A stretch of DNA of 64,000 bases from a bacterium (GCA_965221165.1 CBDCRP010000003.1:1984001-2048000), one strand, 5' to 3'; positions 4,490 to 51,766 are shown, counted from the stretch's first letter. Notes: generated from the sequence alone by a model not told the origin. Numbers and translations: made by a program.

Positions 4490-4549
4490 GATTAACCCTC
4501 CCGCATCGGTCGGAATTGATCCTCCTCCCCGTCGGAAAACCGCAGTATT

Positions 4550-4838
4550 CCCCTCCTCGGGGCGGGGTGACCTTAAAGGGTGGTCGCCACTTGCCCCTCA
4601 TCGGTCGCAAACCCTCCTTCCTCAGTCGGGTTTGACCCAGCATTTGCCGTTATCGTCCGGGCTTGGGGCCATGCCGGAACGGCGCCGCGGGCCGGTGCGT
4701 CGGGGCCACCCGGAATTGGTGAAAAAAGGGAAAAAATAGTAAAAAAAGGCGAAAATATCTGAAAATAAGTGAAAATTTATCGCGTTGTTTTCAAATGACT
4801 TACAGGGAATCTGCCCCCGTTTGGCCGCACAGGGGGGC
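4550..4838 (+). repeat. Left copy of long composite inverted repeat (partner at 51506-51766)
   Basis: Shared blocks 4550-4607 (58 bp, 1 mismatch), 4611-4629, 4699-4716 and 4720-4779 (60 bp, 1 mismatch) match the reverse complement of 51709-51766, 51662-51680, 51627-51644 and 51564-51623. Confidence 0.95.
4721..4802 (+). promoter_or_regulatory. Phased A-tract (curved DNA) array plus IHF-like site
   Basis: gaaaaaaggg aaaaaatagt aaaaaaaggc gaaaatatct gaaaataagt gaaaatttat gives six A-tracts at a 10-bp period, followed by TATCGCGTTGTTTTCAAATGACTTA. Protein binding is inferred. Confidence 0.6.
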
Positions 4839-4976
4839 CGGGAGTTTCTCACGCGCGTCATCTGTGGGATATTCGGAGGGGGCGTCTCCGGCTCGCCGAT
4901 ATGGGCGGAAAAGATACCGGAAGGCTTCTTTTGCGTTTTCATGGAACATTGCTTTTCCAGCACCCAGGGGGTATTC

Positions 4977-5366
4977 ATGGAAAAAAAGGTCATTCATACC
5001 GACAAGGCCGCATCCGGCAAGGTGCCGTTATCCCAGGCCATTCAGATTGGAGAGTGGCTCCACTGCTCGGGGCAGTTGCCCATCGATCCCAAGACGGGAG
5101 AACTCGTTCCGGGTGGCGCAGCCGAGCAGACGCGCCAAATCATCGAGAATCTAAAAGCTGTGTGCGAGGCAGGCGGCACTTCCTTGAAAAATGCCGTAAA
5201 AGTCACTATTTTCATGGAATATCTGGCGGATCTGCAGGAAATGAACGCAGTGTTCGAGGAATATTTCGGGACGGAAGACCCACCGGCGCGAACGACTTTT
5301 CAGGCGTCAAAAATCATCGCAGGCGCGAAACTCGAAATCGAACTGCTGGCGTTCATCCCCCAATAA
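4977..5366 (+). CDS. RidA/YjgF family enamine deaminase
   Basis: LSQAI, SGQLPIDP, VKVTIF, PARTT, LEIE motifs. Confidence 0.9.
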   Translation: MEKKVIHTDKAASGKVPLSQAIQIGEWLHCSGQLPIDPKTGELVPGGAAEQTRQIIENLKAVCEAGGTSLKNAVKVTIFMEYLADLQEMNAVFEEYFGTEDPPARTTFQASKIIAGAKLEIELLAFIPQ

Positions 5367-5398
5367 TATTCATTCCCCGATAGCAAGAGGAGAACCTT

Positions 5399-6028
5399 TT
5401 GGCCACAAGAGCACCCCAGGTTGGAATACTGATGGGAAGCGCATCGGATAAACCCGTGATGGAAGAAGCCGTCAAAGCGCTGGATATTTTCAACATTCCC
5501 TCCGAAATGAGAATCTTATCGGCCCACCGCACGCCCGACGCCGTTCATAAGTATGTAAAAACGGCGCCTGAGCGCGGAATCCGGGTACTGATCGCAGGAG
5601 CAGGCATGTCGGCGCACTTGGCGGGCGTCGTAGGCGCCGCCACGGATCTGCCCGTGATAGGGGTTCCCATCGACAGTTCCTCGCTCGGCGGCCTCGACTC
5701 TCTTCTCTCCACAGTACAAATGCCTCCCGGCATTCCCGTGGCGACGATGGGAATCGGCGGCCCCGGGGCCAGGAACGCAGCCCTTCACGCCACTCGAATA
5801 CTCGCTTTGACCGACTCGAAACTAGCGAAGGAATACCGACGTTTCGCGCAGCAGCAAACCGAGAAGGTCCTGGCCGCGGACGCCGCGCTCCAAAAAGAAA
5901 TCTCTCCTCCAACCGTCCAAACGCAAAAAGACGGCTCGGCTCAACCCAAGAGTGACGCCAGAAAAAGTTCCGGGCAAAAACCAAGACCCAAGCGGAGTCG
6001 CCCCAAGAGAACATTCCGGAAAAAATAG
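5399..6028 (+). CDS. purE: N5-CAIR mutase with basic C-terminal tail
   Basis: MGSASD, SAHRTP, AGAGMSAHL, VQMPPGIPVAT. Confidence 0.96.
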   Translation: MATRAPQVGILMGSASDKPVMEEAVKALDIFNIPSEMRILSAHRTPDAVHKYVKTAPERGIRVLIAGAGMSAHLAGVVGAATDLPVIGVPIDSSSLGGLDSLLSTVQMPPGIPVATMGIGGPGARNAALHATRILALTDSKLAKEYRRFAQQQTEKVLAADAALQKEISPPTVQTQKDGSAQPKSDARKSSGQKPRPKRSRPKRTFRKK

Positions 6029-6031
6029 ACA

Positions 6032-6682
6032 GTGGGTAGAATCCTCTCGGTGAACCCTGATTCACCAGAAGAAGAAGTCATTCGGCAGGCCGGCGAAGAG
6101 CTGATTTCCGGAAACATCATCGCTTTGCCCACGGATACGATTTATGGGCTATGCGCACGCGCCTTCGATGAAAAAGCCATCGAGAGACTCTACGAAGTAA
6201 AGGGAAGAAAAGATGAAAAGGGCGCCCCTGTCCTTATCGGGCAACGCTCCCAGTTAAAAGGCCTTGCCAGCGACATCTCCACGCGCGCAGCGCGCTTAAT
6301 CGATAGTTTATGGCCTTCAGGGCTGACTCTGGTTCTGCCCGCATGCCCTAAACTCTCTCCCCGACTCTCTGAAGGCGGCATGAACATCGCCGTTCGCATG
6401 CCCGCTCTTGCGCTTTGCCATAGCCTAGCCATGCAGGTCGGCCCGTTCGTGGCAACAAGCGCGAACCTATCCGGTGAGCCTTCACTCAATAGCGCTCAAG
6501 AAATCTCGGCTCGATTTCAAAACAAGGTGACGTTGGTTTTAGACGGCGGGAAAATAGAGAATACCTTGCCTTCCACCGTGGTGGACGCAAGAGGAGAGAA
6601 ACCAAAGCTCTTGCGCGAAGGTATGGTCGATTTCGCATCGGTGGTTCAAGTCTGGAATAAAGCGGAAGAGCAGGCGCCCTGA
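6032..6682 (+). CDS. tsaC: L-threonylcarbamoyladenylate synthase (Sua5/YrdC)
   Basis: PTDTIYGL, KGR, WPSGLT, TSANLSG, PSTVVD. Confidence 0.92.
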   Translation: MGRILSVNPDSPEEEVIRQAGEELISGNIIALPTDTIYGLCARAFDEKAIERLYEVKGRKDEKGAPVLIGQRSQLKGLASDISTRAARLIDSLWPSGLTLVLPACPKLSPRLSEGGMNIAVRMPALALCHSLAMQVGPFVATSANLSGEPSLNSAQEISARFQNKVTLVLDGGKIENTLPSTVVDARGEKPKLLREGMVDFASVVQVWNKAEEQAP

Positions 6683-6685
6683 ATT

Positions 6686-6985
6686 TTATTCCGGCGCCGG
6701 CATATTCAATACGATTCGGCCTTCTCCTTCGACGATACACTGACAAGCCAGCCGATATTCATCCGGATTCCATCCATAGGCATCCAGCGTATCTTTTTCG
6801 TCTTCTTGTTGTGGAGAGAGAAACTCGGCTCCCGAAATCACGACCACCTTACAGGTAGAACACGCACAATTACCGCCACAATCACAGGTATGGTCAACAC
6901 CATTATCCATATCCGCGTCAAGTATGGAATCTCCAATCTCCGTCTCATATTCAGCATCCAGGTTCTCGTATCGAATAACGCTCAA
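6686..6985 (-). CDS. 2Fe-2S ferredoxin
   Basis: CGGNCACSTC...RLACQC; TTG start at 6985 behind a GGAGG RBS. Confidence 0.9.
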   Translation of the reverse strand: MSVIRYENLDAEYETEIGDSILDADMDNGVDHTCDCGGNCACSTCKVVVISGAEFLSPQQEDEKDTLDAYGWNPDEYRLACQCIVEGEGRIVLNMPAPE

Positions 6986-7206
6986 AAAACAACCTCCCGA
7001 AAAAACAGTAAAATAAAATTTCCGAGACAGTACGCTCATAAAACGATTTTCGCAGGCATGGGGATTCTACGAAATCCCATCCTCCCCGGGCCAAATTTAT
7101 TACCCTTTTTCACGCTATTCAACAAGCGCCTTCAAGAGTTTTTACGTTGTATCTTAAACAATGGCGAGCCTGAACATGCAGATTTGCGGGAAGACGGGGA
7201 GATACG

Positions 7207-7938
7207 CTAGACCATGCCTTTCGGCGGAAGAACCACCATCGATTCCGTCCACGCCCTGCGAGACTGAGACAGCAAAAACTCAATGGATTCCGCCACCAGA
7301 TCCGGAGGAATCATCGCCTCAAAATCGAACTCGCCTGGAATGGATTTCCACATATCCGTTGCGCAAGCTCCAGGCCGGAGGATGGTGAGCCGTATTCCCT
7401 TGGGCCTCAATTCTTCCACCAATGCCCTGGATAATCCCTCCAGGCCAGCTTTAGCGGCGCAATAAGCCGATGCCCCCGGAAAACCCGACACAGCGCTAAT
7501 CGAAGATATATTGATGACCTCACCTTCCGCTGCTTCGAGCAGGGGACAAAGAACCCGCGTCAACATGAAAGGGGCGATGAGACACACCGAGACAGTGGAA
7601 TGAAATTCATCTACCGAGAGGTTTTCGATATCCTTGAAAACACCAGAACCCGCATTGTTTATCAGCGTATCCACACCCTCTAGCCGTTTTCCGGCCATTT
7701 CAGCGAGCGCTTCAACTTCATCGGCTTTCGTCACATCGCAACTGTGCGGGAAAATCTGTCCCACGCATCCTTTCGAATCAAAAGCCAGTCTCGCCAGGGC
7801 ATCGGCATCCCTCGAAACGGCAAGCACTTTCGCTCCCGCTTTTGCGAGACGAAGCGCGCTCGCACGGCCTATTCCCCGAGAAGCCCCTGTAAGGACGATT
7901 CGTCTCTTCTCCAAATTTCTGGGCTCACCGAATGCCAT
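7207..7938 (-). CDS. SDR family oxidoreductase (possible sepiapterin reductase-like)
   Basis: TGASRGIG, NNAG, YCAAK; start overlaps the end of the PTPS gene. Confidence 0.88.
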   Translation of the reverse strand: MAFGEPRNLEKRRIVLTGASRGIGRASALRLAKAGAKVLAVSRDADALARLAFDSKGCVGQIFPHSCDVTKADEVEALAEMAGKRLEGVDTLINNAGSGVFKDIENLSVDEFHSTVSVCLIAPFMLTRVLCPLLEAAEGEVINISSISAVSGFPGASAYCAAKAGLEGLSRALVEELRPKGIRLTILRPGACATDMWKSIPGEFDFEAMIPPDLVAESIEFLLSQSRRAWTESMVVLPPKGMV

Positions 7939-8353
7939 CGGGACTTTCTCCATAATAATCCACGAAATTTCGCTCGTTCTCATATAAACGAACGCGAAAA
8001 AGAATCTCCGCATCTATATATTCAGCCAAACATTCCCAAATCGAAATCACAATGTTCTCTGCTGTGGGGATTCGATTTTTCATAAACCCCGCCGCATCTT
8101 CATTCAGATTCTTGTGATCTAGCGCTTCTACAACTTCTCGTTTCATAATCTTCTTCAGATCGCCGAGATTATAAGCCATTCCCGTTTCGGGGTTTACGGG
8201 GCTTCTCAAGGTCACTTCAAAAACATAATTATGCCCATGGAAGTGCGGATTGGCGCATTTTCCATACATGGCTTCATTGCGTTCATCACACCAGTCGGGT
8301 CGAAATAACCGGTGCGCCGCGGAGAATTCTTCTTGTCTTGTTATTTCAATCAT
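7925..8353 (-). CDS. 6-pyruvoyl-tetrahydropterin synthase family (COG0720), PTPS-II-type motif
   Basis: FSAAHRL, C-ANPHF-HGHNY (C-X5-HGH), LDHKNLN, PTAEN. Confidence 0.9.
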   Translation of the reverse strand: MIEITRQEEFSAAHRLFRPDWCDERNEAMYGKCANPHFHGHNYVFEVTLRSPVNPETGMAYNLGDLKKIMKREVVEALDHKNLNEDAAGFMKNRIPTAENIVISIWECLAEYIDAEILFRVRLYENERNFVDYYGESPDGIR

Positions 8354-8359
8354 CTACCC

Positions 8360-9571
8360 TCAATCCTTCGCTGAAATCGGCTCGATGACGGAAACATCCG
8401 TTTCAATCATGTCCGCATATTTCAAGCCTGTGGCCGTATTAAATGTCACGATGCGCTCATCACGCCCGATGTCGCCTCGCTCAAGCAAAACTTCCAGGGC
8501 CGAAATACATGCCCCGCCTTCCGGGCAAATTAGAATCCCCTCAGAAGCGCCCATTCTACTTTGGGCTTCGAACATCATCTCATCCGAGACGGCAATCGCC
8601 GTGCCACCACTTTCCCGGATGGCCTGAAGACATAAGAAATCCGCCAGAACCTTTGGCGCGCACAATCCGGATACCACCGTCGTAGGGTTGTCCCATAAGG
8701 AGGAAACATCTTCTTTGTTCTTATACGCCCGCACGAGCGGGGCGCAACCTTCGGCCTGAACGCAAATCATGCGAGGTCTTTTTTCCCCTATCCAGCCCAA
8801 CCGCTCAAGCTCATCAAAGGCGCGCCACATCGCCACCAGTCCCGTCCCGCCACCGGTGGGATAGAGGATCACGTCTGGAACATCGCCGCCGAATTGCTCA
8901 ACGAGTTCGTAGGCCATCGTTTTTTTACCTTCAGCTCGATATGGCTCCTTGAAAGTGGATAATTCGAACCAACCTTCCGCCGGTGTTTTTTCCGCCACAA
9001 TTTCCGCACAGTGATGGATATAGCCATTTACAACGGTCACATCGGCCCCCGCTAGAGCGCATTCCACCTTATGCACGCTTGGCGCTTTTTCCGGCACATA
9101 AACGAACGCCTTGATTCCCGCTCGTGAGGCGTAAGCCGCCGCCGCGCCACCCGCGTTCCCAGCTGTCGGAATGGCGATTTTTTTTGCTCCCAGATACCGC
9201 GCCATCGTGATTGCGACAGACAATCCTCTCGACTTGAAACTTCCCGTAGGGTTCAAGCCCTCATCTTTCACCAGCAGGTTTGAAAATCCCAAAACCTTCT
9301 TAAGACGAGGGACCTCCAATAGGGGCGTCATGCCCTCGCCGAGCGTAACGATGGAGCTTTCGTCGGGGGCCGGGAGCATTTCATGATAGCGCCACATGGA
9401 ATGGGCGCGGCTCGCCATATTCCTGATGTTCAAAGTCCGCGCGGCGGCTTCGGTGTCATATCGCGCCAGTAACGGAGCACCGGAGGGGCTTAAATTCATC
9501 AAGCCGCCGGGCTCGAATTGTTCTCCTGTTTTTGAACATTCAAGACCTATGAACGCGGAATAAGAATTCAT
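8360..9571 (-). CDS. thrC: Threonine synthase-like PLP enzyme
   Basis: TLGEGMTPL, NPTGSFKSRG, TAGNAG, EGKKTM, PTGGGTG. Confidence 0.85.
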   Translation of the reverse strand: MNSYSAFIGLECSKTGEQFEPGGLMNLSPSGAPLLARYDTEAAARTLNIRNMASRAHSMWRYHEMLPAPDESSIVTLGEGMTPLLEVPRLKKVLGFSNLLVKDEGLNPTGSFKSRGLSVAITMARYLGAKKIAIPTAGNAGGAAAAYASRAGIKAFVYVPEKAPSVHKVECALAGADVTVVNGYIHHCAEIVAEKTPAEGWFELSTFKEPYRAEGKKTMAYELVEQFGGDVPDVILYPTGGGTGLVAMWRAFDELERLGWIGEKRPRMICVQAEGCAPLVRAYKNKEDVSSLWDNPTTVVSGLCAPKVLADFLCLQAIRESGGTAIAVSDEMMFEAQSRMGASEGILICPEGGACISALEVLLERGDIGRDERIVTFNTATGLKYADMIETDVSVIEPISAKD

Positions 9572-9692
9572 CTCATAAATCCATTCATGAGGTTTTGTTT
9601 CTCGATATTGTTGCATCCAAGGTACTTTGGTACTTTCTCATTAATTTTCATCACGATATCGTCATAATCGCTGCCCCCGCAAGGAGAAAAAG

Positions 9693-10571: not shown

Positions 10572-10576
10572 AAATT

Positions 10577-11140: not shown

Positions 11141-11357
11141 CACGCAACCTACCTCTCCATGAGTGCCCATCAATAAAAGCCAATTAGTAACATTCAGCCT
11201 TAGGATACTCCATGTCGCAGGCGTCATTCACCTCTCGTTCGCCAAGTACCAGAAATAAGTCGCTGCTAATTAAGGTCGTGCGTCATAATTATTTTTGATA
11301 AGCTTGAGTGAAAGAAAACTGTAGAAAATAAGCATTCCATTGAAAAGGAGATTTCAC

Positions 11358-11930
11358 ATGGCCGTCGTCACTATTTCACGTCAATACGGAACCGGTGGAA
11401 TTTTCATTGCGCACAAGCTTGCGGAAAAATTGAACTATAGTTTTCTGGGACGCGATGAACTCGTCGAAGTTTGCAACCAACGAGGTTTGAACTTGGATTT
11501 AGAGAAAATCGAAGGACGCGCCCCAACAATCTTGGAGCGTACTTTCGGCGTGAGACGAGACAGCTTACGAGATGTTTTGTCTGAAACCATGTATGAAGCG
11601 GCGGATAAAGGGAACGTCGTTATCGGCGGGTGGGGAGGACAAGTACTCCTCAAGGATCGATCCGACGCCCTCCATCTGCGGATCGTCGGCAGCGTGGAAG
11701 CCCGTATCCGGCACTTCATGGAATCATCAGGCGTAACGAGAACAGCCGCAGAAGAAACTATCAAGAGATCCGACCGGGATCAAGGTTTGTTTTCCCAGTA
11801 TTTTTTTCATATCGATTTCGCCGACTCAACTCTTTATCACGGCACATTGAACATCGAGCAAACATCGCCCGACGGCATGATCTCCATCATCGAATCAATG
11901 ATTGAAGAAAAAGAAAAGGCGGCTTCATGA
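11358..11930 (+). CDS. Cytidylate kinase-like family protein
   Basis: VVTISRQYGTGG...VIGGWGG...LHLRI. Confidence 0.88.
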   Translation: MAVVTISRQYGTGGIFIAHKLAEKLNYSFLGRDELVEVCNQRGLNLDLEKIEGRAPTILERTFGVRRDSLRDVLSETMYEAADKGNVVIGGWGGQVLLKDRSDALHLRIVGSVEARIRHFMESSGVTRTAAEETIKRSDRDQGLFSQYFFHIDFADSTLYHGTLNIEQTSPDGMISIIESMIEEKEKAAS

Positions 11931-12202
11931 TCAGGAACGAGAGATCGAATTTCCGTGTCATATCCTGCCTACTAGATTTTGAGCTTATAAGCCCCGCCTC
12001 GTCGTGCACTTTTGGTACAGGAAAAGTGGTTTCAAAGCGCGTGAAATTTTAGAGGAGGGGTTTTCATTTGAAACAATGGAGACAGGCCGCCACCCCAGTT
12101 CATCCATGAGAACATTCCTCGAAAAAATGCCGCTGCGAAAAGATGTCTTCACCTCAATACAACCTTGAGATGCGCCGGTTTCGTGACAACCGTCTGGAAA
12201 AA

Positions 12203-13438
12203 TCAACCTTTTCTTCTCTTTGCTTGAGAGGATGCCGCCGCCACGGCAATAAGTGACAACACCTGAACAGCCAACACCAGAATAAACGCCCAATAATAGC
12301 TTCTCCATAAATCAAAAAAGTATCCTGCAAGCCAAGGTCCTACGGCTGAGGCCAATCCTCCTCCCATTTGGCTGAACCCCAGGATTCGACCAAAGTTTTT
12401 GCCAGCAAAAATGTCCGCCTTGATCGATACGAAAATAGCGCCACGAGCCCCGGCACCGATGCCATACACCAAAACATAAGCATATCCCAGCCAAACACGG
12501 TGTTCAGATAAATTCATCAACAAAAAAACGCCCGACATGGCAATTACGCTGAGCAGATAAAAAGTTCGGGTTCGTCCAATTCTGTCCCCCACCCAGCCAC
12601 CCAAAATACCTCCCAAGGCCCTGATTACGGCCAGACCTCCAATGAGAGAGGCGGCTTTCATCGTGCTCATTCCCACATCAACCATGTGCGCAGCCTGATG
12701 TACGCCGACCACGCTGAAACCAACACCATTAAATATTCCCGCCAGAAACAAAAGCCAAAAAACCGAATCGGATAAGGCTTCTTTCAATGTCCAATTCGAC
12801 CCGAGGTCGTCTCCTCTTCTTAGTTCCGTTACATCGGCGCGGCGGCGATGTAAGAACACATTCAAGGGAACCAATAAAACGATGATGCCAATAGCCAACA
12901 AAACATAGGCCGCGCGCCATCCAAAAGTCGCGATTAGATAAGCGGAAACCGGAACCATGACAATGCCGCCACAACTCCTTCCCGATAAAGATATCCCCAT
13001 CGCCACGGAGCGGCGTCGCACAAACCATTGACTAACGACGGTGCTTGTAGGAATAAACCCAAACATAGTAACGCCTAGGGCGACGATGCCTCCATAGAAA
13101 AAATATAAGGTGGGTAAGCTGGAAACCATTGACATCAAAACAAGGCCGGTGCCTAGAATCGTGATTCCCGTGGGAATGATCACCCGCGGTCCCCAACGGT
13201 CCACCATTGCCCCAATAAAGCCGGCGGAAATCGCAAACGTGGCCATTGAAAAAGAAAATGCTAAGGCAGTGTCCGCCCGAGACCACCCAAATTCATCAAG
13301 AAAAGCCACATAAAAAACAGGAAAAGTTCCGACGATAGAACCGCCAATAGCCATGGTGAAAAAGGTGAGGCCAACTATCACCCAGCCATAATAGCGACCT
13401 GTATTCTCACTGGCCTTCTCTGAAAAATAGGGCACCAT
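12203..13438 (-). CDS. MFS transporter
   Basis: About 12 hydrophobic segments; GAMVDRWGPR and GWVGDRIGR MFS loop motifs. Confidence 0.93.
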   Translation of the reverse strand: MVPYFSEKASENTGRYYGWVIVGLTFFTMAIGGSIVGTFPVFYVAFLDEFGWSRADTALAFSFSMATFAISAGFIGAMVDRWGPRVIIPTGITILGTGLVLMSMVSSLPTLYFFYGGIVALGVTMFGFIPTSTVVSQWFVRRRSVAMGISLSGRSCGGIVMVPVSAYLIATFGWRAAYVLLAIGIIVLLVPLNVFLHRRRADVTELRRGDDLGSNWTLKEALSDSVFWLLFLAGIFNGVGFSVVGVHQAAHMVDVGMSTMKAASLIGGLAVIRALGGILGGWVGDRIGRTRTFYLLSVIAMSGVFLLMNLSEHRVWLGYAYVLVYGIGAGARGAIFVSIKADIFAGKNFGRILGFSQMGGGLASAVGPWLAGYFFDLWRSYYWAFILVLAVQVLSLIAVAAASSQAKRRKG

Positions 13439-13576: not shown

Positions 13577-14734
13577 TTAGACACGCATCGGCATTACAAC
13601 ATATGTATACCCACCCGAGTCTTTGGGGGAAATCACACCAGGGCTCAGCGAATCTTTTAGCTCCATGCTGATTTGCTCTTCTTCCAATATGGAGAGCGCA
13701 TCGAGGCAATACCTAGAATTAAATCCAATCGTAATATCAGTCTGCGCGTTCGATTCGATGGTTTCCTCGGCCTCTCCCGCCTCTGATCCGTTCGTCGTCA
13801 ATTTCAACTGACCCCGGGAAAACTCGAACTTCACCATGCGTGTTTCATTCGTGAAAAGAGAGACTCGCCTGAGCGCTTGCGTTAAACTCTCCCGATTCAT
13901 CAAAATCGAATGCTCATTGTTATCTGGAATCACTTGCCTGTATTTCGGGAACTCGCCATCTATCAACCGAGCCGATAATGCAATATTCTCCATTTGAAAA
14001 ATAATGTGGTTTGGAGTGAGGGAAGCGGACGCTTCGCCTCCTGAAAGAGATAAACCCTGACCGCTTGGAACGTGGGTAAGAGAAACGGATACTTCACCCT
14101 CAACGCCTTGTAAGAGTTTTACGAGTTCTCCCAAAGCTTTTTTGTGGACAATGACTCCCTCATCAAGCACTAACCCTTCACTCGCGCGCTCAATCATTGC
14201 CAATCGATGGCCATCCGTGGCGACGAGGCGCAGCGTGTCGGCTTCGGTTTCCATGAAAACGCCATTGTAAGTGTAGCGCGTCTCATCCTGGGATATCGCA
14301 AACATCGTCTTGCGAATCATTTCGGATAAAACCGAAGCTGAAATCGTATGCATTTTCGATTCTTTTGACTCCGGAAGTGCAGGAAACTCTGAGGGCGGCA
14401 ACCCCGGGAAACGAAATTTCGAGCGCTCGCAGCGCATTTCAATCCATTGCCCATCTTCTTCTGTGAAACGAACCTCAGCTTCGGGAAGCTCCCGAACAAT
14501 ATCAAACAATTTCCTTGCATTCAGCGTTACACTGCCTGTTTTCTCTACTTCGGCCTCGAACATTCCCCGCATACTTATATCAAGATTCGTGCCCAACAAG
14601 CGGATATTATTTTTGCCTTCTGTCTCGACAAGCACGTTTTGCAGTATTGGCATTGCGCTGCTTCTGTTTTCGACAACACCTTGTATCGTCTGAAGGGCTT
14701 TGAGCAACGTATCCCTTGAAATGGCTAACTCCAC
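13577..14734 (-). CDS. dnaN: DNA polymerase III beta sliding clamp (with ~20-aa insertion)
   Basis: MPILQNVL, ARKLFDIVREL, VATDGHRL, LIDGEFPKY, IGFNSRY, VVMPMRV; GTG start behind AGGAG. Confidence 0.96.
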   Translation of the reverse strand: MELAISRDTLLKALQTIQGVVENRSSAMPILQNVLVETEGKNNIRLLGTNLDISMRGMFEAEVEKTGSVTLNARKLFDIVRELPEAEVRFTEEDGQWIEMRCERSKFRFPGLPPSEFPALPESKESKMHTISASVLSEMIRKTMFAISQDETRYTYNGVFMETEADTLRLVATDGHRLAMIERASEGLVLDEGVIVHKKALGELVKLLQGVEGEVSVSLTHVPSGQGLSLSGGEASASLTPNHIIFQMENIALSARLIDGEFPKYRQVIPDNNEHSILMNRESLTQALRRVSLFTNETRMVKFEFSRGQLKLTTNGSEAGEAEETIESNAQTDITIGFNSRYCLDALSILEEEQISMELKDSLSPGVISPKDSGGYTYVVMPMRV

Positions 14735-15077
14735 AATACCGACTCCTTGTAATGGAACAGGACTTAATGAATCATCGACAGCATCAACCCGTGCTTTAGG
14801 GTTTGATAATAACAAATTCTAGGATATTCAGGGTCTTACTTTCCATATAAACCAAAGATGCGCACGGGGCAAGGGGATAAGTTTTTTGAAACAGATACTT
14901 CGATTGTTCTGTGAAGGTTGATCACATGAAAATTTATTACACCTCTCTGCTCGTCTCCAGAGGAACTTTCACCTCGGTTCAAACACTGAAGCAGTGCAAC
15001 AATTCTTGAATCATTCATTCGAAATGGTAATATGAAAACCTTGTTTATGCGGAGGCTCTCCAACTAATCTCTATATT

Positions 15078-15830: not shown

Positions 15831-15831
15831 A

Positions 15832-40332: not shown

Positions 40333-40355
40333 CTTGAACACCCCTTCTCATGACG

Positions 40356-43568: not shown

Positions 43569-43607
43569 CTACCCCTCCTGAAAAATACCTTTTCGTTTCG
43601 GCTCGGA

Positions 43608-44138
43608 TCAGCTTTTCAGATGGCTGGCAACTTCTTCGACAAACTTCAGCGTCGTTTCTCGCATTTCCTCGGGCTGTAAATTGCTGACCGGATGGGGCAA
43701 TTGGATATACGGGTGCCCCTCCATGCCCTTGCCTCGAAATTGAAAGTCCGCCGCGTTCTTGAACGCCTCGGTGATGATGGTGGTCGAAGGAACGCCTCGT
43801 TTTTCAAATTCAACCGTGTCGTGCACACTGCACAACGTGCAAGAGCCTCAGCCCCCTAATGCGGCTATCGCCACATCCACCTCCTGGGCCATTTCTTCAA
43901 TCATTTCATCCGTGGCGGGTTTCGAGTAATGCTCCTTGCGCAGCGAGACGACTCTGGCCACGTCAAATTGCTCACGAAGAGCATTTCCCAGAGTGTCCAA
44001 AATAATATCCGCTTGCTCTTTCGTGTTGTCGAGGAGTCCTACCACCTTGCCAGAAAGATCGCCGGGTCGTTGCGCCAGCTCAATTTTCGCGGCTGAGCCA
44101 CCCGCCGTCGGGTCGATAAATCCCATTCCGTTCGCCAT
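43608..44138 (-). CDS. UGSC-family selenoprotein (one gene, split into two ORFs by UGA)
   Basis: ...AIAALGG-TGA(43848-43850)-GSCTLCSVHDTVEFEKRGVP... in frame; LLDNTK motif; SECIS-like hairpin. Confidence 0.88.
43818..43836 (-). promoter_or_regulatory. Putative SECIS hairpin of the UGSC gene
   Basis: GUUGUGCA-GUG-UGCACGAC; 8-bp stem starting at +12 after the UGA, loop begins with G. Confidence 0.55.
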
Positions 44139-44345
44139 GGCTTTCTCCATATGATATGTGAATTCAACCGTATCTAAATCATATCTCGCTAATCTTTCCT
44201 TGTCTACGATATCCGACCATTCGATTTCTCTTGTCGATTCTCTCTTGAAAATACGAATGATATTTTATCCGCTTCTCAGATTCGCCGAATTTTGGCAAAA
44301 TCAAGTCCAATTCACGAAAATCCTCTTTTCTTAAGGAGTAAACAA

Positions 44346-46607
44346 ATGGCCGATTACGATATCATCGGCAAGTCAAATGTTCGATACGACGCTATTCCGA
44401 AAGCGGATGGCTCTATGCCCTATGGAGAAGACGCGATACCCGCAGGCGCATTGCAGTGCGGCGTATTGTTTACGCCCATCCCCGTAGGCCGCTTGAAAAA
44501 ACTTGACACTTCAAAAGCCGAAAAAATTCCGGGCGTAGCCGCTATTTTGACCGCAAAGGATATTCCGGGCATAAACGCGCGATTCGGCTCCGGCACGACG
44601 GGCCTGCCCCATCAGCCAGTGTTGGTGGAAGATAAAATTGAATTTACCGGAGACGCTCTCGCCATCGTAGGCGCTGAAACCAGAGAAGCGCTTGATGCTG
44701 CGATAGCAGCCATCGAAGTGGAAATCGAAGCGGAAGAGGGCGTGTGGACAACGCGTCACGATGAAACGAGCGCCGAGAAACGACAGGCGTGTGATTTCGA
44801 GGTAACCCGAGGAGATACAAAAACCGCGTTTGACGAAGCCGATGTGGTGATTGAGAAAACATACACCACGCAACTCGCCGAACACGCATTTCTGGAACCC
44901 GCCTCCGGCACTTCCTGGATGGAAGAAGACGGCGTCATCACAATCCGTGTCGGCACTCAGCTTATTGAATACTATCGCGCCATAGCGGCGATCTTGGGAA
45001 TCTCGCAGAGCCGTGTCCGACACCTCGGAACTTACGTCGGCGGCGGTTTCGGCGCCAAAGGCATGCTGACCGTAGAACCTTACCTGGCACTGCTCACTTG
45101 GCATACGCAAAGGCCCGCCGTAATGGTGCTGGGTCGCGAGCACGGCATCAGAAACACCTCGAAAAAACATCCTTTCTATATGAAATACAAAACAGGAGCG
45201 ACCAAGGACGGGAAAATTTTGGCCGTACAAGCGGATATCGTGGGCGACGCAGGCGCCTATCCGTATAAATCCAATTTGTTCCTCCTGGGCGCGATGTGCA
45301 TCGCCGCAGGCCCTTACGATGTGCCCAACGCAAAAATTCGTGCGCACGGCTATCTCACCAACAATCCTATCACCAACGCGATGCGTGGCGTTGGCTCGAA
45401 CCAGGTCTGCTTCGCATATGAGACCCAAATGAATCTGGTTGCAGACTCCATCGGGATGGACAAATACGAATTCAGGAGGAAAAATTTCATCCAGAAAGGC
45501 CAGGAACTGCCCACCGGGCAAAAAATTCCTTATGAACCGAACCTGGAAGGATGCCTCGACAGCGCGCTTCAGGCCTTGGGCGAACCCACAGAACCAGGCC
45601 CGGGAAAACGTATTGGCCGGGCGGCAGCAGCGAACATCACCGGCTACGGAAGGCCAAATGACGATGCGAATGCGGCGGTTCACCTTGAGCCGGATGGCAG
45701 CGCCGTGGTTCGCGTGAGCGCACCAGATATTGGAGCAGGGCAGGGCGCTACGCTTCAAAGCATCACGGCTGAAACCCTGGGACTCAGGCTCGATCAGGTT
45801 TCCACCCGTCTATCCGATTCCGCTACTACGCCGCTCTCGGGCATCACTGCCGGGTCCCGCCAAACTCTCATGGCTGGGCACGCCGTTCAACTTGCCGCAG
45901 ACGAGGTTAGGAAAACCGTGACTAAAGGCGCCGCTTCATTGCTCGAGGCTGCTGAAGAGGACATTCGCGTGGGTGGCGGCGAGGCGTGGGTGTCCTCCGC
46001 TCCCGAGAGGAGAGTTGGCATCGGTGCTGCGGCTGGCGAAGCCAAAAAAATGGGTGAAGCACTACATTGCACCCATGGCTACAACATGCCGGGACATGAA
46101 TATGAGAATCCTAAGCGATACATGAACGGCATGGGCGGATGGTCGGACTACACCTTTGGCGTTCACGCAAGCGAAGTGGAAGTCGACATCGAAACCGGTG
46201 AAGTGAATCTCTTGAAGCATGTCGCCAGCCATGATGTCGGGCGAGCGCTGAACCCTCAAAGCGTGGAAGGGCAATTTGAAGGGGGCGCGGTAATGGGGAT
46301 TGGCTACGCTCTACACGAGGAAATCACCATGGTGGAAGGAGACTGCCGATCGCAAAGCTTTCACGAATATCTAATCCCCACTTCCTCGGATATCGGCGAG
46401 TTTGAGTCTGTCGTTCTTGAGTGTGGGGAAGGCGCGGGTCCGTATGGCGCACGCGGCGTTGGGGAGCCACCATGCAATAACGCGCCAGCCGCAGTCGCCC
46501 TCGCCATAAACGATGCGATAGGCACGGAAGTCTACGACCTGCCCATTACACCCGAGCGCGTCTGCTGGGCTGTAATGAAGAAAAACGGCAAAAGCAACGG
46601 CCATTAA
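44346..46607 (+). CDS. Xanthine dehydrogenase family molybdopterin-binding subunit
   Basis: EHAFLEP, VGGGFGAK, AMRGVG, DIGAGQG, AGSRQT, GQFEGG, GVGEPP. Confidence 0.93.
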   Translation: MADYDIIGKSNVRYDAIPKADGSMPYGEDAIPAGALQCGVLFTPIPVGRLKKLDTSKAEKIPGVAAILTAKDIPGINARFGSGTTGLPHQPVLVEDKIEFTGDALAIVGAETREALDAAIAAIEVEIEAEEGVWTTRHDETSAEKRQACDFEVTRGDTKTAFDEADVVIEKTYTTQLAEHAFLEPASGTSWMEEDGVITIRVGTQLIEYYRAIAAILGISQSRVRHLGTYVGGGFGAKGMLTVEPYLALLTWHTQRPAVMVLGREHGIRNTSKKHPFYMKYKTGATKDGKILAVQADIVGDAGAYPYKSNLFLLGAMCIAAGPYDVPNAKIRAHGYLTNNPITNAMRGVGSNQVCFAYETQMNLVADSIGMDKYEFRRKNFIQKGQELPTGQKIPYEPNLEGCLDSALQALGEPTEPGPGKRIGRAAAANITGYGRPNDDANAAVHLEPDGSAVVRVSAPDIGAGQGATLQSITAETLGLRLDQVSTRLSDSATTPLSGITAGSRQTLMAGHAVQLAADEVRKTVTKGAASLLEAAEEDIRVGGGEAWVSSAPERRVGIGAAAGEAKKMGEALHCTHGYNMPGHEYENPKRYMNGMGGWSDYTFGVHASEVEVDIETGEVNLLKHVASHDVGRALNPQSVEGQFEGGAVMGIGYALHEEITMVEGDCRSQSFHEYLIPTSSDIGEFESVVLECGEGAGPYGARGVGEPPCNNAPAAVALAINDAIGTEVYDLPITPERVCWAVMKKNGKSNGH

Positions 46608-46622
46608 CTGGTAATCAACTAC

Positions 46623-46655
46623 AAAAAAGCCCCGGCAAGCTGCCGGGGCTTTTTT
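46623..46655. terminator. Bidirectional rho-independent terminator
   Basis: AAAAAAGCCCCGGCA-AGC-TGCCGGGGCTTTTTT between convergent genes. Confidence 0.9.
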
Positions 46656-46743
46656 CTTCAGAAAAACACTAAACCATTCCTAGCTTCACAAAGGCTTATA
46701 CGAACAAGTGGAACATGAGATTTTGTCACGCCATCAAGCTATT

Positions 46744-47793
46744 TCACACACTAAATTTTTTTATCACGGCCCGGCACGCCACGGTAATTCCGTGCATGAC
46801 CATGCTGGAGGGCGACCCCCTGCTTCCTGCGACGATCAAATGAAGATCCTCGGGATCACCTACCGCAGGCACAAAAAAATCATCATCATTCACATCCACG
46901 GGAAACGGCCAACGATCCGCGCCTTTCTCGCCTCGCCATATGCCGCCACGTTTTATGTCCCCGATTTTGCGGCCTCCCATTTCCATCAATTTTTGATGAA
47001 CATCGGAGCGGCTGAGCCCGGCGTCAGAGCAAAGGTGCGCATGTTGCGCGCCCAGGACAACCGCCATGTCCGCTTGTCGATACATATTGGGGCCGCCTAA
47101 AGCGGACATCATGTCAGCAACTGTCGTAAGAAGCCGATCCGGAGTCAGGCTCGCATCGTCCCATACCTGCACGGGCCCTTCGAGGGGAATCATGGTTACC
47201 GCATTATCATTTTTTAAAAACCCTTTCGATTCCGCATATGACTCCCAGGGCGATTCCTCCTCGTTCTCCAAGATGCAAAAAGTGTTTCGCCAGGGACCTC
47301 CAAAACCGCCTAGACAGGTAACCCCGGGAATTCCGCCACCCACGTTCATCATGATGAGCCTCACGGCGCGGCCGATGGTCAGATTTGCGCGAAAGCCGGG
47401 ACCCATACAGCCTACCCCTCCGTGCAATCCGATTTCCTTGGCGTAGGGACCATTGACCAGCAAAAAAGGAGCGCCCGCGCTCGTCGTGGCCTGAATCAGG
47501 TTTACGTTAAACTGCTCATCGAGAAGCGCTTCCAGTCCTGCTATCAGTACCGGCATGTATTCAGGCTTACAGCCCGCCATCACGGCATGGGCCGCAACGC
47601 TTTGGATGCTGAGTTCGCCCCCTGCCGGAGCTACGTCGCCTATAACTTCACCCGGCTCTCTTTTGGTTCCTGAGAGCATCATATCGATTCTCTCTTCCGT
47701 CGGCGTCACTACAGGCAAGCCGTCCGACCATTCTTTTTCAAAGAAAAACTCGAATTCGTCCATACGCTCATCCTCAAAAGTAACCCGACTCAA
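46744..47793 (-). CDS. Uncharacterised 'DGLPV-x-PT' protein (UGSC-associated family), paralog 4
   Basis: WSDGLPVVTPT, HAVMAGCKPEY, VNGP, GPGFRAN, ENEEESPW; start TTG 47793 or ATG 47763. Confidence 0.85.
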   Translation of the reverse strand: MSRVTFEDERMDEFEFFFEKEWSDGLPVVTPTEERIDMMLSGTKREPGEVIGDVAPAGGELSIQSVAAHAVMAGCKPEYMPVLIAGLEALLDEQFNVNLIQATTSAGAPFLLVNGPYAKEIGLHGGVGCMGPGFRANLTIGRAVRLIMMNVGGGIPGVTCLGGFGGPWRNTFCILENEEESPWESYAESKGFLKNDNAVTMIPLEGPVQVWDDASLTPDRLLTTVADMMSALGGPNMYRQADMAVVLGAQHAHLCSDAGLSRSDVHQKLMEMGGRKIGDIKRGGIWRGEKGADRWPFPVDVNDDDFFVPAVGDPEDLHLIVAGSRGSPSSMVMHGITVACRAVIKKFSV

Positions 47794-47797
47794 ATGC

Positions 47798-48814
47798 TTA
47801 TAGTTGATAATCAGTCGAGACCGCCTCACTGCCATCCACCCAACCTGGCATGACGGCCGTCACCGGTCCGGGCGTACCCCCTGCGACGACAACAATCAGA
47901 TCGTCTTTATCCTTAATCGCCGGAACCATAAACGAATCATCTTGCGGATCGATATCAAATGGCCACTTCTTTATCATCTCCTCGCGCCAATAGCCCGATT
48001 TTCTCAGCTCTCCAAGGGGTCTGCGCGCAAGTTCCATTAGTCGTCGATGGACATCTTCTTTACCAAGCCCCGCTTGCGCGCACATGCGTGCATGATCCGG
48101 ACCAAAAGCGACAACCACCTGAGTCTTTAGCCAGATGTTCAGCGAACCAAGGGTGGATATTTTATCCGCTAAACCCACGAAAAATGATTCCGGCTCTTTT
48201 GAATAATCATCGATATACCCTTGAGGCGCTTCTGTCATCACGGCGGTTACAACATCGTCATTTTGATGAAATCCTCTCGTGACGGAAAATGGCTCCCAAG
48301 GGCTTTCTGCTTCATTCTCGGCGATACAAAACGTATATCTGGCAGGTGAACCGAAGGTGCTCATAGAGGCGAAAACCGGTACACCGCCGCCCAGGTTCAT
48401 GAGAATGAGCCTGATGGCGCGACCAATCGTCGCGTTCGCCCGAAAACCCGGCCCAAAGCATCCTGTACCGCCATGAAGACCGATTTTATTCGCATAAGGT
48501 CCGTTCACAATAATCAAAGGGGCTGCGCTATGCATGGTGCCCTGCACGCCGTTCAAGTTTAGTTCTGGGGTTAAGAGCGCCCGGAGGCCAGCTATAACGA
48601 CGGGTAAATACGAGGATTCACAGCCCGCCATTACGGCGTGCGCGGCAACCGCTTCGACGCTGGCCTCCCCCATGAGGGGCGGCACCAAGCCAATGACTTC
48701 CGAAGCCTCAATTCTTGCGCCCGAGAACATAGCGGCCATTCGTTTTTCGGTAGGGGGGATTACCGGAAGACCATCCGACCAGGATTTTTGAAAGAAAAAC
48801 TCGAATTCATCCAT
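47798..48814 (-). CDS. Uncharacterised 'DGLPV-x-PT' protein, paralog 3
   Basis: Same motifs; the RBS-supported ATG at 48842 is out of frame by 1 nt. Confidence 0.85.
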   Translation of the reverse strand: MDEFEFFFQKSWSDGLPVIPPTEKRMAAMFSGARIEASEVIGLVPPLMGEASVEAVAAHAVMAGCESSYLPVVIAGLRALLTPELNLNGVQGTMHSAAPLIIVNGPYANKIGLHGGTGCFGPGFRANATIGRAIRLILMNLGGGVPVFASMSTFGSPARYTFCIAENEAESPWEPFSVTRGFHQNDDVVTAVMTEAPQGYIDDYSKEPESFFVGLADKISTLGSLNIWLKTQVVVAFGPDHARMCAQAGLGKEDVHRRLMELARRPLGELRKSGYWREEMIKKWPFDIDPQDDSFMVPAIKDKDDLIVVVAGGTPGPVTAVMPGWVDGSEAVSTDYQL

Positions 48815-48855
48815 TGGGATACGACACCGCTTTCTCTGTCATGGAGACTCCGGCG

Positions 48856-49890
48856 CTATACTTCATAGGCCCCATGAACGGCGCGGCTGCCGCCACTCCA
48901 GCCATGACAAACCGCGCTGCCGGAACCCCAGCCGCCCGCGACGATCAAATGGAGGTCGCGGGGGTCTTTGATGACGGGGACAAAAAACTCATCATCATCG
49001 GGATCCACATGAATATACATATCCAGCGCGCGCCTGCGTCGCCAGTTGCCGCCGCGCTTCAGATCTTTCACCTTATGTCCGGCCAACTCGCACAGGCGCT
49101 GGTGCACGTCCGCACGGGTAAGGCCGCCACCAGAGCAAATTTTCGCATGCTGGGGATTCATGGCGACGACCATGTCGGTCCTGGGCGCGTGCATGTTCCA
49201 GGAACCCAGGCCCGTCATCGCATCTGCGATTCCTCGGAGCAGGCGCTCGGGCTCCTCACTGACATCATCGAAAGTCAGGCGCGGGCTTTCCACCATGGCC
49301 ATGGTGATCACATTTTCATCCGCCCCGTATCCCCTGGATACAGCGAGCGTCTCCCAGGGGTGAAACTCCAGGTTCTCCGTGATGCACGCGGTATAGCGCA
49401 GCGGCGTGCCGAAAATCGTCATCGAAGAAACACCCGGGATGCCGCCACCCAGATTCATTAAAACCAGGCGAATGGCTCGGCCAATGGAAGCGTTGGCCCT
49501 AAAACCGGGACCAAAACAGCCATTTCCTCCGTGAATGCCGATATTCTCGGAATAAGGGCCATTCACGATCATGAGAGGCGCCACACCATGCATCGTGCCC
49601 TGCACGCCGTTCATGTTGAACTCATCGCGAAGCATGAGGGAGGTAGCGCCGAGAACGACCGGCAAGTACTCGGGTTTGCAGCCGGCCATCACCGCATGAA
49701 CTGCCACGCTATGGACCGTGGCCTCGCCCATGGCGGGAGGAACGTGGCCGATGAACTCATCCGGATTTCTCTTCGTGCCGGAAAGCATGCGCTCTATGCG
49801 CTCTTGCGACGGAGTGACGACGGGCAAACCGTCCGACCATGGTTTTTCCAGGAAAAACTCGAATTCATCTAGAGGATCGTTCAAAACCAC
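48856..49890 (-). CDS. Uncharacterised 'DGLPV-x-PT' protein, paralog 2
   Basis: WSDGLPVVTPS, AVMAGCKPEY, GPGFRANASIGRA. Confidence 0.88.
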   Translation of the reverse strand: MVLNDPLDEFEFFLEKPWSDGLPVVTPSQERIERMLSGTKRNPDEFIGHVPPAMGEATVHSVAVHAVMAGCKPEYLPVVLGATSLMLRDEFNMNGVQGTMHGVAPLMIVNGPYSENIGIHGGNGCFGPGFRANASIGRAIRLVLMNLGGGIPGVSSMTIFGTPLRYTACITENLEFHPWETLAVSRGYGADENVITMAMVESPRLTFDDVSEEPERLLRGIADAMTGLGSWNMHAPRTDMVVAMNPQHAKICSGGGLTRADVHQRLCELAGHKVKDLKRGGNWRRRRALDMYIHVDPDDDEFFVPVIKDPRDLHLIVAGGWGSGSAVCHGWSGGSRAVHGAYEV

Positions 49891-49916
49891 TCACCCCCTG
49901 AAATATACGAGTATCA

Positions 49917-50948
49917 TCAGGATTCAAATGAACGGGATACACAGCGGCTGCTTCCATTCCAGCCGTGCATCACGGCCGTCATCGGCCCCGGAATTCCTCC
50001 CGCCACGATCAAGACCAGTCGTTGGGCTTCCTTGATCGTCGGAACGAACGCATCGTCATCATCCAGGTCGACGGAAATTGGAAAATCATTAATCCGATTT
50101 TCCCTGTAATGGCCTCCCGTCTTGAGTTCACCCACCGTGCGGCCCGCGATTTCACAAAGTCGTCCATGGACATCCGCCTTGGAATACCCCCGCTTTGCGC
50201 AAACCGCCGCCTGTTGCGGGCTCATCGCCACCACCAAATCGGTGCTGGCCCAACAATTCCAGGCGCCCAAATGCGACATGGTGTCCGCAATGGAGGGGAA
50301 CATGCGCTCAGGGTCGTTACTCACGTCATCCCAGACCATGACGGGGCCTTCCACGTGCACGGCGGTAACGACGTCCTCGTCCGCGCCAAAACCCTTCGTC
50401 ACGGCAAAAGAATCCCAGGGGCTTTCTTCTTCGTTCTCGGCGATGCAGAACGTGAACCTCCCCGGTTGGGAGAAGGTGCTCATCGAGGTGATGCCCGGTA
50501 TTCCGCCGCCGATGTTGAGAAGCAAAAGTCTGATGGCGCGGCCAATCGTCGCGTTTGCTCTGTTTCCGGGGCCAAAACAACCAAGTCCGCCATGTAAGCC
50601 GATTTCCCTGGCGTAAGGGCCGTTCACGATTAAAAGAGGGGCCGCGCAGGAGAGCGTCGCCTGCACACCGCCCACATTGAATTTTTCCTCTAAAATAGCC
50701 TCCACGGCCCCGATGAGAACGGGCATATACTCCGGTTTGCATCCGGCCATGACGGCATGAACGGCGATGGTCCGAACATCCGCCTGGGCCAGCAGCGGGG
50801 GTACGTCCCCGATGACTTCTTCCGGAGTGCGGCTCGTGCCCGCCAGCATGAGCCCTAGGCGCTCTTCCGTCGGGGGGATGACCGGCAGGCCGTCCGACCA
50901 GGGTTTCTCAAAGAAATAATCGAACTCATCCACAGGAAGAGCGCTCAT
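49917..50948 (-). CDS. Uncharacterised 'DGLPV-x-PT' protein, paralog 1
   Basis: WSDGLPVIPPT, AVMAGCKPEY, GPGNRANATIGRA; GGAGG RBS. Confidence 0.88.
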   Translation of the reverse strand: MSALPVDEFDYFFEKPWSDGLPVIPPTEERLGLMLAGTSRTPEEVIGDVPPLLAQADVRTIAVHAVMAGCKPEYMPVLIGAVEAILEEKFNVGGVQATLSCAAPLLIVNGPYAREIGLHGGLGCFGPGNRANATIGRAIRLLLLNIGGGIPGITSMSTFSQPGRFTFCIAENEEESPWDSFAVTKGFGADEDVVTAVHVEGPVMVWDDVSNDPERMFPSIADTMSHLGAWNCWASTDLVVAMSPQQAAVCAKRGYSKADVHGRLCEIAGRTVGELKTGGHYRENRINDFPISVDLDDDDAFVPTIKEAQRLVLIVAGGIPGPMTAVMHGWNGSSRCVSRSFES

Positions 50949-51119
50949 GAAATGCCTCCGGAGAAACGCTAAGATGCGCAGGATACGCTTGCCATCGAAA
51001 ATGTTGAACAAATATACATGGGCGCTGGACAGATTGCGAATCCATGCCGTTAGAATGGGCCTTACATCCAGTTTTCCGATCACGATGGAATCACCACGTC
51101 ACCCACAGGAGCCCATTTC

Positions 51120-51506
51120 ATGCCGATATACAGAAATCTCGCCGGACAGGACCAGGGAAAAGCCGCCGACTACGTTACCGCAAACGCCGCCTGGGTCGAT
51201 GGCGCCCACACCACCATCGGTTTTTTCCGGATGGAGGCGAACGGCCATTCCAACCCGCACTATCACCATGACGAGCAATTCCTCTATCTCTTAAGGGGCA
51301 GTCTCCGCATCGCCGTGGAAGGAGAAGTCCTGGAGGCCGCACCCGGTGATCTGGTGCAGTTCCCGCCCGGAGAAGTGCATGAGATCATGGCGCTCGATGA
51401 GCCCGTGGAGCTCCTGCTCACGAGAAGCCCGGCGCGCCCGAGTCTCGACGTGCTCGCCGTGACGCCAGAAGGCGACAAGGCGAGGAGCGTGCTGCGCGCG
51501 GGCTAG
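51120..51506 (+). CDS. Cupin domain protein
   Basis: PHYHHDEQ...PPGEVHE; AGGAG RBS. Confidence 0.85.
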   Translation: MPIYRNLAGQDQGKAADYVTANAAWVDGAHTTIGFFRMEANGHSNPHYHHDEQFLYLLRGSLRIAVEGEVLEAAPGDLVQFPPGEVHEIMALDEPVELLLTRSPARPSLDVLAVTPEGDKARSVLRAG

Positions 51507-51766
51507 CCCCCCATAGCGCTCCCAAAGGGGAATTTGCGCATAACCTTATATATTTCAACAAGTTAAATTTTCACTTATTTTCAGATATTTTCGCCTTTTT
51601 TTACTATTTTTTCCCTTTCTTCAGATATTCCGGGTGGCCCCGACCGATAAGGGAGGGGCTGCCGACTGAGGAAGGAGGGTCGATTCCGCCCGAGGAGGAA
51701 GGAATTGACGACCGATGAGGGGCAAGTGGCGACCACCCTTTAAGGTCACCCCACCCCGAGGAGGGG
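51506..51766 (-). repeat. Right copy of long composite inverted repeat (partner at 4550-4838)
   Basis: See left copy. Includes the phased T-tracts 51564-51623, IHF-like TAACCTTATATATTTCAACAAGTTA (51541-51565) and four ~22-bp iterated motifs at 51640-51726. Confidence 0.95.

Follow-up and report, generated by a model that had tools for sequence, protein, structure and literature searches.

A stretch of 64,000 nucleotides from a bacterium (GCA_965221165.1, contig CBDCRP010000003.1, positions 1984001-2048000; called here the window, with coordinates counted from its first letter) raises the question of what a pair of inverted repeats has to do with the composition of the DNA lying between them. 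Much of the interior of the window is poorer in GC than its flanks, and close to either end of this GC trough lies a composite element in inverted orientation to the other. A reading of the sequence alone had taken the two elements to define a structural or functional domain: a coated or looped region, a region between oriented fork-control sites, or an invertible segment. The comparisons described below lead elsewhere. On balance we favour the interpretation that the trough is an old compositional heterogeneity of native DNA, and that the elements are separate mosaics of repetitive extragenic palindromic (REP) hairpins, of the type called bacterial interspersed mosaic elements (BIMEs), of which the right-hand one is a recent duplicate. 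The trough looks like neither a genomic island nor an assembly join.

The GC trough and its edges

Measured in 2-kb windows, GC ranges over 0.56-0.63 in the flanks and, between 7 and 42 kb, over 0.46-0.51, so that the lower GC reported between the elements stands, as does the impression that the profile is graded rather than stepped. On the left, GC is 0.61-0.675 up to 4.9 kb, 0.52-0.59 up to 6.4 kb and 0.46-0.55 thereafter, the fall beginning at the left element. The last GC-rich gene on this side (GC 0.660) encodes an AAA+ ATPase of the RarA/MgsA type (rarA, 2691-4142, minus strand; Pfam MgsA_C, AAA_assoc_2 and AAA; NCBIfam AAA family ATPase / RarA), and the first genes inside the trough are of the ridA, purE and tsaC types (4986-6682, plus strand; Pfam, NCBIfam), along which GC goes from 0.59 down to 0.54. 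The core of the trough, at 6700-48400, has a GC mostly of 0.46-0.53, is free of REPs and houses dnaN (13577-14815, minus strand), tupABC-like genes, nadA and nadC, and many metabolic genes; Pfam and NCBIfam bore out the earlier recognition of interior core genes for DnaN, PurE, a TsaC-type protein, NadA, NadC and TupA/B/C-like proteins.

The right-hand edge is differently placed. GC rises from about 43 kb, is already 0.58-0.595 from about 48.4 kb, and is unchanged across the right element (51.56-51.77 kb). Four tandem paralogs of an unannotated family (46744-51083, minus strand), which had been proposed as an internal control for the gradient, have total GC values of 0.545, 0.528, 0.588 and 0.586, and the trough must therefore end between the second and the third gene, in the middle of the array and about 3 kb inside the right element rather than at it. 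The suggested tie between the GC profile and the element positions thus holds on the left, where edge and element coincide, and fails on the right, where GC has recovered 3 kb or more before the right copy is reached. Over the whole window GC skew is negative, with no change of sign at either border, and its cumulative curve is monotonic; because the sign is constant across the borders, nothing points to a recent inversion.

The trough in related genomes

Relatives were found with rarA as the query, and 80 loci were kept. Identity to RarA of the window is 87% in L001, 88% in L002, 83% in L003 and 70% in L004, and at most 62% in the other 76 kept loci. The four closest loci are from metagenome-assembled genomes, two of them titled Nitrospinota or Nitrospinae; L003 is a complete chromosome of 3.04 Mb (OZ241326.1), L002 is contig JAJDYR010000026.1, of which 21 of 106 kb were examined, and L001 covers 4.4 kb.

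The order and orientation of the genes beside rarA are the same in L002 and L003 as in the window: ridA and purE and then, farther in, genes for SDR, PTPS, PALP, MBL, cytidylate-kinase-like and MFS proteins, and dnaN. L002 keeps the ridA-purE-tsaC-type order; in L003 the position is likewise taken by ridA and purE, and none of its ORFs (open reading frames) scanned gave a tsaC-type match. Protein identity to the window is 90% for PurE in L002, 90% and 77% for the PALP enzyme in L002 and L003, and 94% (partial) and 77% for DnaN in the same two genomes, and the flank proteins RarA and PyrF are each 88% identical to those of L002. A DUF3604 protein encoded in the middle of the interior has matches at 91, 83, 82, 80 and 76%, all of which sit on megabase contigs, and others down to 73 and 60%; the few named ones are from Nitrospinae. 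The conserved synteny and the orthology of the interior proteins together establish that the interior is native and vertically inherited in its left and middle parts.

The opinion that the segment does not look like a classical acquired island is borne out by the synteny of its left 10 kb in L002 and L003, by the DUF3604 relatives on megabase contigs, and by the want of mobility genes: as had been claimed for integrases and transposases, none of the 80 ORFs scanned in the window matched an integrase, transposase or recombinase family (E <= 1e-5). There is also no tRNA in the window, the repeats at the ends are inverted, and the left and middle parts of the segment are neither absent from close relatives nor misplaced in them. 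Farther to the right, the xanthine-dehydrogenase-family gene at 44292-46607 has matches at 97-68% that are all on short contigs, followed by a gap to 47%, and on megabase contigs its relatives reach only 43-45%; the catabolic cluster in the right third of the trough may be accessory and patchily distributed among relatives.

The trough itself recurs in these genomes. L002 has the same graded fall in GC, from 0.67 in rarA through 0.60-0.61 in the spacer and ridA/purE and 0.54 in the next kb (the tsaC-type position) to 0.49-0.53, while L003 keeps the synteny at a GC of 0.65-0.71 throughout, with no trough. In the window, L002, L003 and L004, respectively, the GC of rarA is 0.660, 0.683, 0.705 and 0.673, and that of the PALP gene is 0.543, 0.560, 0.723 and 0.581, giving differences (rarA minus PALP) of 0.117, 0.123, -0.018 and 0.092. 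The contrast between a high rarA and a low PALP gene is therefore present in three of the four genomes, including the most distant, L004, and absent from L003.

The paired elements as probable REP mosaics

The near-identical inverted blocks reported at both ends are indeed present, at 4550-4787 and 51556-51766. In a repeat search, block A (58 nt, 4550-4607, plus strand) has its inverted counterpart at 51709-51766 (minus strand) at 98% identity, and block B (89 nt, 4699-4787, plus strand) has its own at 51556-51644 (minus strand) at 92%; the latter pair contains the 18-nt and 60-nt blocks described earlier. A further 19-nt block is identical at 4611-4629 and 51662-51680. Block B consists of an 18-nt GC-rich head followed by six A-tracts at 10-bp spacing (4721-4779). 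Its right-hand copy starts 50 nt past the stop codon of a cupin gene, and the A-tract arrays of both copies face the interior. A phased pattern of four A-tracts occurs in the window only at the two elements, with 0.02 expected, and the array about 200 nt upstream of ridA is predicted from its sequence to be intrinsically bent. The fold of block A is no better than that of shuffles (z = -0.64).

Three probes, 23 nt from block A, 32 nt from block B and the 19-nt block, are each found at two places in the window and no more, a number reached in none of 100 shuffles. The suggested search for the element across the genome and in relatives thus gave exactly two copies within the window, and the block A 23-mer had no exact match in 185,579 species-representative genomes, a collection that does not hold the source genome. 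No match to the element was found among plasmids by blastn, and the N-terminus of an ORF initiated in block A brought up no candidate in a protein collection in which the window's own ORFs were equally unmatched.

When the two copies are aligned in inverted register, collinear similarity begins farther out than the blocks, at about 4402 and 51928, and this outer part proves to be a pair of REP hairpins. The left doublet (4402-4490) comprises two GC-rich hairpins in opposite orientation, resembling a BIME or a REP doublet forming a hairpin (REPIN); folded as DNA, 4400-4500 has z = -3.85, and none of 200 shuffles was as stable. The right doublet (51857-51926) is a direct repeat of 4414-4483, at 87%. 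The 26-mer 4414-4439 recurs exactly at 51857 and, on the minus strand, at 55919, and at 96% near 63268, making three exact copies and one near copy in the window. A second dispersed hairpin family is represented at 4606-4636 (plus strand), where it includes the exact 19-nt block at 4611-4629, and has copies at 4606, 51779, 52099, 52781 and 55668-55708, the last inverted; the hairpin at 4597-4640 folds with z = -2.79. Each element is thus a mosaic of alternating orientation, in which the doublet (4414-4490 or 51857-51926) is followed by further hairpin units and common linker blocks. In the window these units behave as REPs, being short imperfect palindromes confined to spacers, with alternating units joined by linkers.

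The distribution of these repeats is uneven. Among the 25 inverted pairs listed, nine reach a complementarity of 80% or more, and all 18 of their arms are located at 4414-4787 or beyond 51556, in the spacer clusters 4414-4787, 51556-52128, 55668-55944 and 63048-63488. The heptamer CGTAGGG was found 16 times against 4.3 expected, 12 times in flanks or elements and four times in the interior, and the interior spacers at 14.8-15.1 kb and 20.6-21.3 kb, read by eye, are AT-rich and without hairpin repeats. As far as the window shows, then, the interior is free of REPs, as had been stated. The innermost REP clusters fall at the edges of the REP-free stretch because REPs in the window occupy only GC-rich spacers. 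The sequence TCGGTCGG, allowing one mismatch, was also tried as a REP marker; it was not enriched (50 found, 73.6 expected), says nothing on the matter and was dropped.

The two copies are found in opposite transcriptional contexts. The left one lies between divergent starts, bounded by rarA on the minus strand at 4142 and by the start of ridA at 4986. The right one lies in a 3'-3' spacer, between the end at 51506 of the cupin gene (51120-51506, plus strand; Pfam Cupin_2, 8e-15), whose 3' end faces the element, and the end at 52129 of a convergent OsmC-like gene (52129-52617, minus strand; Pfam OsmC). These different settings count against the idea that the elements define the domain, and so do outer modules that are dispersed REP hairpins. 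Promoter and terminator scans gave no site in either element and no sigma-70-like promoter in or beside either array; the scans did place one promoter-like site immediately before rarA.

Relative ages of the repeats and the trough

Between the window and L002, the PALP gene and rarA are equally diverged at the DNA level, at 92% mean column identity each, which corresponds to about 84% pairwise; a hand count of the first 300 columns of a window-L002 alignment gave 46 mismatches, in support of this value. When the spacers of L002 and L001 are aligned with the two copies of the window, mean column identity comes to only 46%, with 29 invariant columns. Since the two copies in the window are 92-98% identical while the orthologous spacer of L002 barely aligns, the repeat pair should be much younger than the trough, unless concerted evolution keeps a pair alike in each species; and since the drop in GC is common to the window and L002 at the same gene border, the trough must be older than the split between the species. 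A young repeat pair, accompanying a trough that is shared with L002 and whose right edge lies well inside the right copy, cannot readily be regarded as what defines the domain, and that part of the sequence-only reading is not sustained.

The same comparison indicates which of the copies is the original. In L001 and L002 an A/T-rich array with a phasing of about 10 bp occupies the same position upstream of ridA, with diverged sequence. A segment found only in the left copy (4640-4698, plus strand; opposite a 28-column gap in the right copy) is recognisable in L002 at 9380-9450 (minus strand), and a leader of about 80 nt before ridA (4905-4985) is conserved with L002 (about 8980-9070, minus strand) and absent from the right copy. 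This leader, which has no Rfam match, may serve to regulate the ridA-purE operon. As the resident segment and the leader are orthologous to L002 and both are missing on the right, the left copy is the resident spacer and the right copy a partial inverted duplicate of it. In the stretches examined, 21 kb for L002 and 4.4 kb for L001, the spacer array has no second copy, the expected site, some 47 kb away, lying beyond both.

A proposed history, and its rivals

The following history is proposed. The low-GC stretch would be an old heterogeneity of a native segment in a Nitrospinota-type lineage, at least the left two thirds of which would have been inherited vertically. Its low GC would result from a weaker GC-ward fixation bias, owing to a lower level of biased gene conversion or of recombination, while GC drifted upward elsewhere in the genome and, in one relative, throughout the genome. 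The left element would be the resident spacer between rarA and ridA, where related species carry REP hairpins and a phased A-tract array too; and the array would be bent DNA, probably acting upstream of a ridA-purE promoter, to judge by its position and its conserved phasing. The right element would be a recent partial inverted copy, probably arising via ectopic gene conversion or recombination between REP clusters, which landed in a convergent spacer.

Several points weigh against this history. Blocks A and B are restricted to these two sites within 64 kb, and both A-tract arrays are oriented inward. Given some five REP clusters in the window, the pair sharing the blocks would by chance also be the innermost pair in about 1 case in 10, a coincidence suggestive enough not to be neglected and the main argument, albeit a weak one, for the border idea. 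There is no sigma-70-like promoter in or beside the arrays, and their role upstream of a promoter is one that we infer. As to the cause of the low GC, biased gene conversion is favoured, and this too we infer. It is possible that concerted evolution of a conserved pair in each species could mimic youth, and the right part of the trough may have a different history from the left part.

Among the rival explanations, it is rather unlikely that the composite, some 240-390 bp made up of block A, REP and block B, represents a non-autonomous mobile element that has other copies in the genome and is present here through two independent insertions. A modular build, in which near-identical blocks are separated by variable REP units, would suit such an element, as would the proposal that REP/BIME clusters are mobilisable by REP-associated tyrosine transposases (RAYTs; available part of PMC2817692), and its absence from the 185,579 other species representatives is in keeping with a repeat family peculiar to one species. 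Against this, the left A/T array and the neighbouring segment have positional counterparts in L001 and L002, as is proper to a resident spacer; no terminal inverted repeats or target duplications were seen at either copy, on reading the sequence or in pairwise alignment; no RAYT or other transposase family was represented among the 80 ORFs; and there are only two copies in 64 kb. We also regard it as distinctly unlikely that some lower-GC relative supplied the segment, through homologous replacement with synteny preserved, to an ancestor common to the window and L002. Such an introgression would explain how synteny was kept while GC is 0.12-0.18 below that of L003 for the same genes, why the right-hand genes are patchily distributed, and why the interior proteins are farther from L003 (77%) than RarA is (83%), yet they are not farther from L002. 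A shift in GC by itself drives amino-acid change, and so could account for the extra distance from L003; moreover L004, the most distant relative, shows the same contrast between rarA and the PALP gene, the edges are graded rather than stepped, and no donor lineage was identified. That the assembly joined on a foreign or misplaced segment at the repeats, a fault that had been named as something to guard against, is scarcely credible. A misjoin is classically betrayed by repeats at the two ends of a block of distinct composition, but the junction of rarA with ridA-purE recurs in L002 and L003, the spacer recurs in L001, GC is equal on either side of the right element, interior and flank genes fall in one clade, and the source contig is 2.15 Mb long.

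That the inverted pair forms a functional border after all, whether by anchoring a loop or insulating, by limiting a protein coat, by controlling forks or by bounding an invertible segment, is judged very improbable. The inverted arrangement with bent arrays facing inward, the coincidence of the left element with the left GC step and the REP-free interior all speak for it, as do reports that proteins bind REPs and BIMEs and the suggestion that these take part in chromosome organisation (PMC2817692, in its available part). It is opposed by the trough being common to L002 when the identity of the repeats is recent, by the lack of any change in GC at the right element, and by the opposite transcriptional contexts of the copies. 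An invertible segment in particular, although inverted repeats are there, finds no recombinase or invertase family among the 80 ORFs, the same sign of GC skew inside and outside, and a left junction identical in three other assemblies. Little probability is given to a variant in which the trough is a long-lived compositional cold domain with a fixation regime of its own, its left border at the spacer between rarA and ridA fixed since before the split from L004 and its inward-facing bent elements kept alike by concerted evolution as border markers; examples would be a coldspot of recombination or of biased gene conversion, or a protein-coated AT-rich zone that would keep REPs out as well.

Comparison with known systems

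The elements resemble the REPs, BIMEs and REPINs of enterobacteria, pseudomonads and Stenotrophomonas in being short GC-rich imperfect palindromes in spacers, in their opposite-orientation pairs and linker mosaics, in the recurrence of identical units over several spacers and in having species-specific sequences. They differ in that this window has no RAYT gene, copies being counted here within 64 kb only, and in that the mosaic carries a 60-nt phased A-tract array, which to our knowledge is not a described BIME module. The available part of PMC2817692 describes REPs as often arranged in mosaic BIMEs, often present in more than 100 copies per genome, binding proteins, thought to be mobilised by RAYT transposases and suggested to have a role in chromosome organisation; the mosaic structure is also described in the accessible parts of PMC3333891, PMC3116915 and PMC3337134.

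Like curved-DNA activators of promoters and UP-element-like sequences, the left array has six A-tracts with a 10-bp period about 200 nt upstream of ridA-purE, with the phasing kept in relatives; unlike them, it has no promoter consensus beside it, and the other copy is situated downstream of two convergent genes, a place in which that role would be meaningless. With genomic islands the trough shares a deviating GC and repeats near both ends, but it has no integrase, tRNA or direct att repeats, and its genes are syntenic and orthologous in relatives. Daubin and Perriere reportedly noted in 2003 that GC at third codon positions is structured along chromosomes. The trough is like the within-genome GC heterogeneity that has been attributed to biased gene conversion (Lassalle et al. 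2015) in that native genes differ by region, the edges are graded and the spacers follow the trend of the coding sequence. It is unlike it in its large amplitude (0.12-0.18 in total GC), in its compactness (about 45 kb) and in being kept between species yet erased in one congener. Across bacteria, gene GC rises with evidence of recombination, and this has been offered as a cause of heterogeneity within genomes (PMC4450053, as far as that source was available). For the layout as a whole, no described counterpart was found in a literature search that drew on parts of the sources and was too narrow to claim that nothing is in print.

If the proposed history is true, it carries two cautions: that an apparent bracketing of a compositional block by repeats can follow from the places in which REPs are tolerated, and that a low-GC block need not be foreign. 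The interesting remainder would be the trough itself, compact, inherited and 0.12-0.18 lower in GC, shared by two relatives and erased in a third with the same gene order. This contrast among relatives would offer a natural test case for regional GC in bacteria, whether due to biased gene conversion, selection or local mutation bias.

Neighbouring genes and other features of the window

The genes parAB are located at 60780-62575, and the parS that had been placed near the segment is matched by two parS-like sites, at 62651 and 62694, with two mismatches each. A second inverted pair of spacer repeats, 55766-55809 and 63048-63091 (44 nt, 86%), encloses 7.2 kb containing parAB, with normal GC. 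A replication origin in the window was considered and rejected: the consensus DnaA box, with at most one mismatch, was found 14 times against 9.8 expected, at scattered sites, and cumulative skew is monotonic. The dnaN gene is a solitary one without dnaA in its vicinity; its neighbours are genes for an MFS transporter and, divergently oriented, a PIG-L deacetylase, and its adjacency to the MFS gene is kept in L002 and L003. No Rfam family reached its gathering score in the window, and a hit to a microRNA model around the left element (21.8 bits against a cut-off of 104) was taken as chance.

In the right part of the trough, a UGSC-family gene at 43608-44150 (minus strand) contains an in-frame TGA at 43848-43850. 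Read as selenocysteine, this codon yields the motif U-G-S-C within a 180-residue protein that ends at the next TGA, and the product is probably a selenoprotein truncated to 100 residues by the standard ORF call. A small hairpin lies 14 nt downstream, with a fold no better than that of shuffles. The four tandem paralogs (338-388 residues, 50-54% identity to the first) have no Pfam match in any of the four and no NCBIfam match in the two that were scanned; their Atlas neighbours are unnamed clusters, one of them with a UGSC domain in 16% of its members. They adjoin the UGSC gene, the xanthine-dehydrogenase-family gene and the cupin gene, and it is tempting to suggest from this gene neighbourhood that all of these may form an uncharacterised catabolic module.

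Among the minor features, L002 has at 11918-12613, between rarA and pyrF, a DUF433-domain ORF in a 1-kb patch of GC 0.446 with no counterpart at that place in the window, which is probably a small insertion. Between osmC and a peroxiredoxin gene of the window there is a perfect 32-nt tandem duplication, at 33-nt spacing (52889-52953). Finally, a 42-nt tandem repeat at 2107-2415, in an ORF without family matches, has six 75-nt copies in register, spaced mostly by 42 nt, and an array of the same 42-nt period is found in the sister species L002, at 14322-14689.

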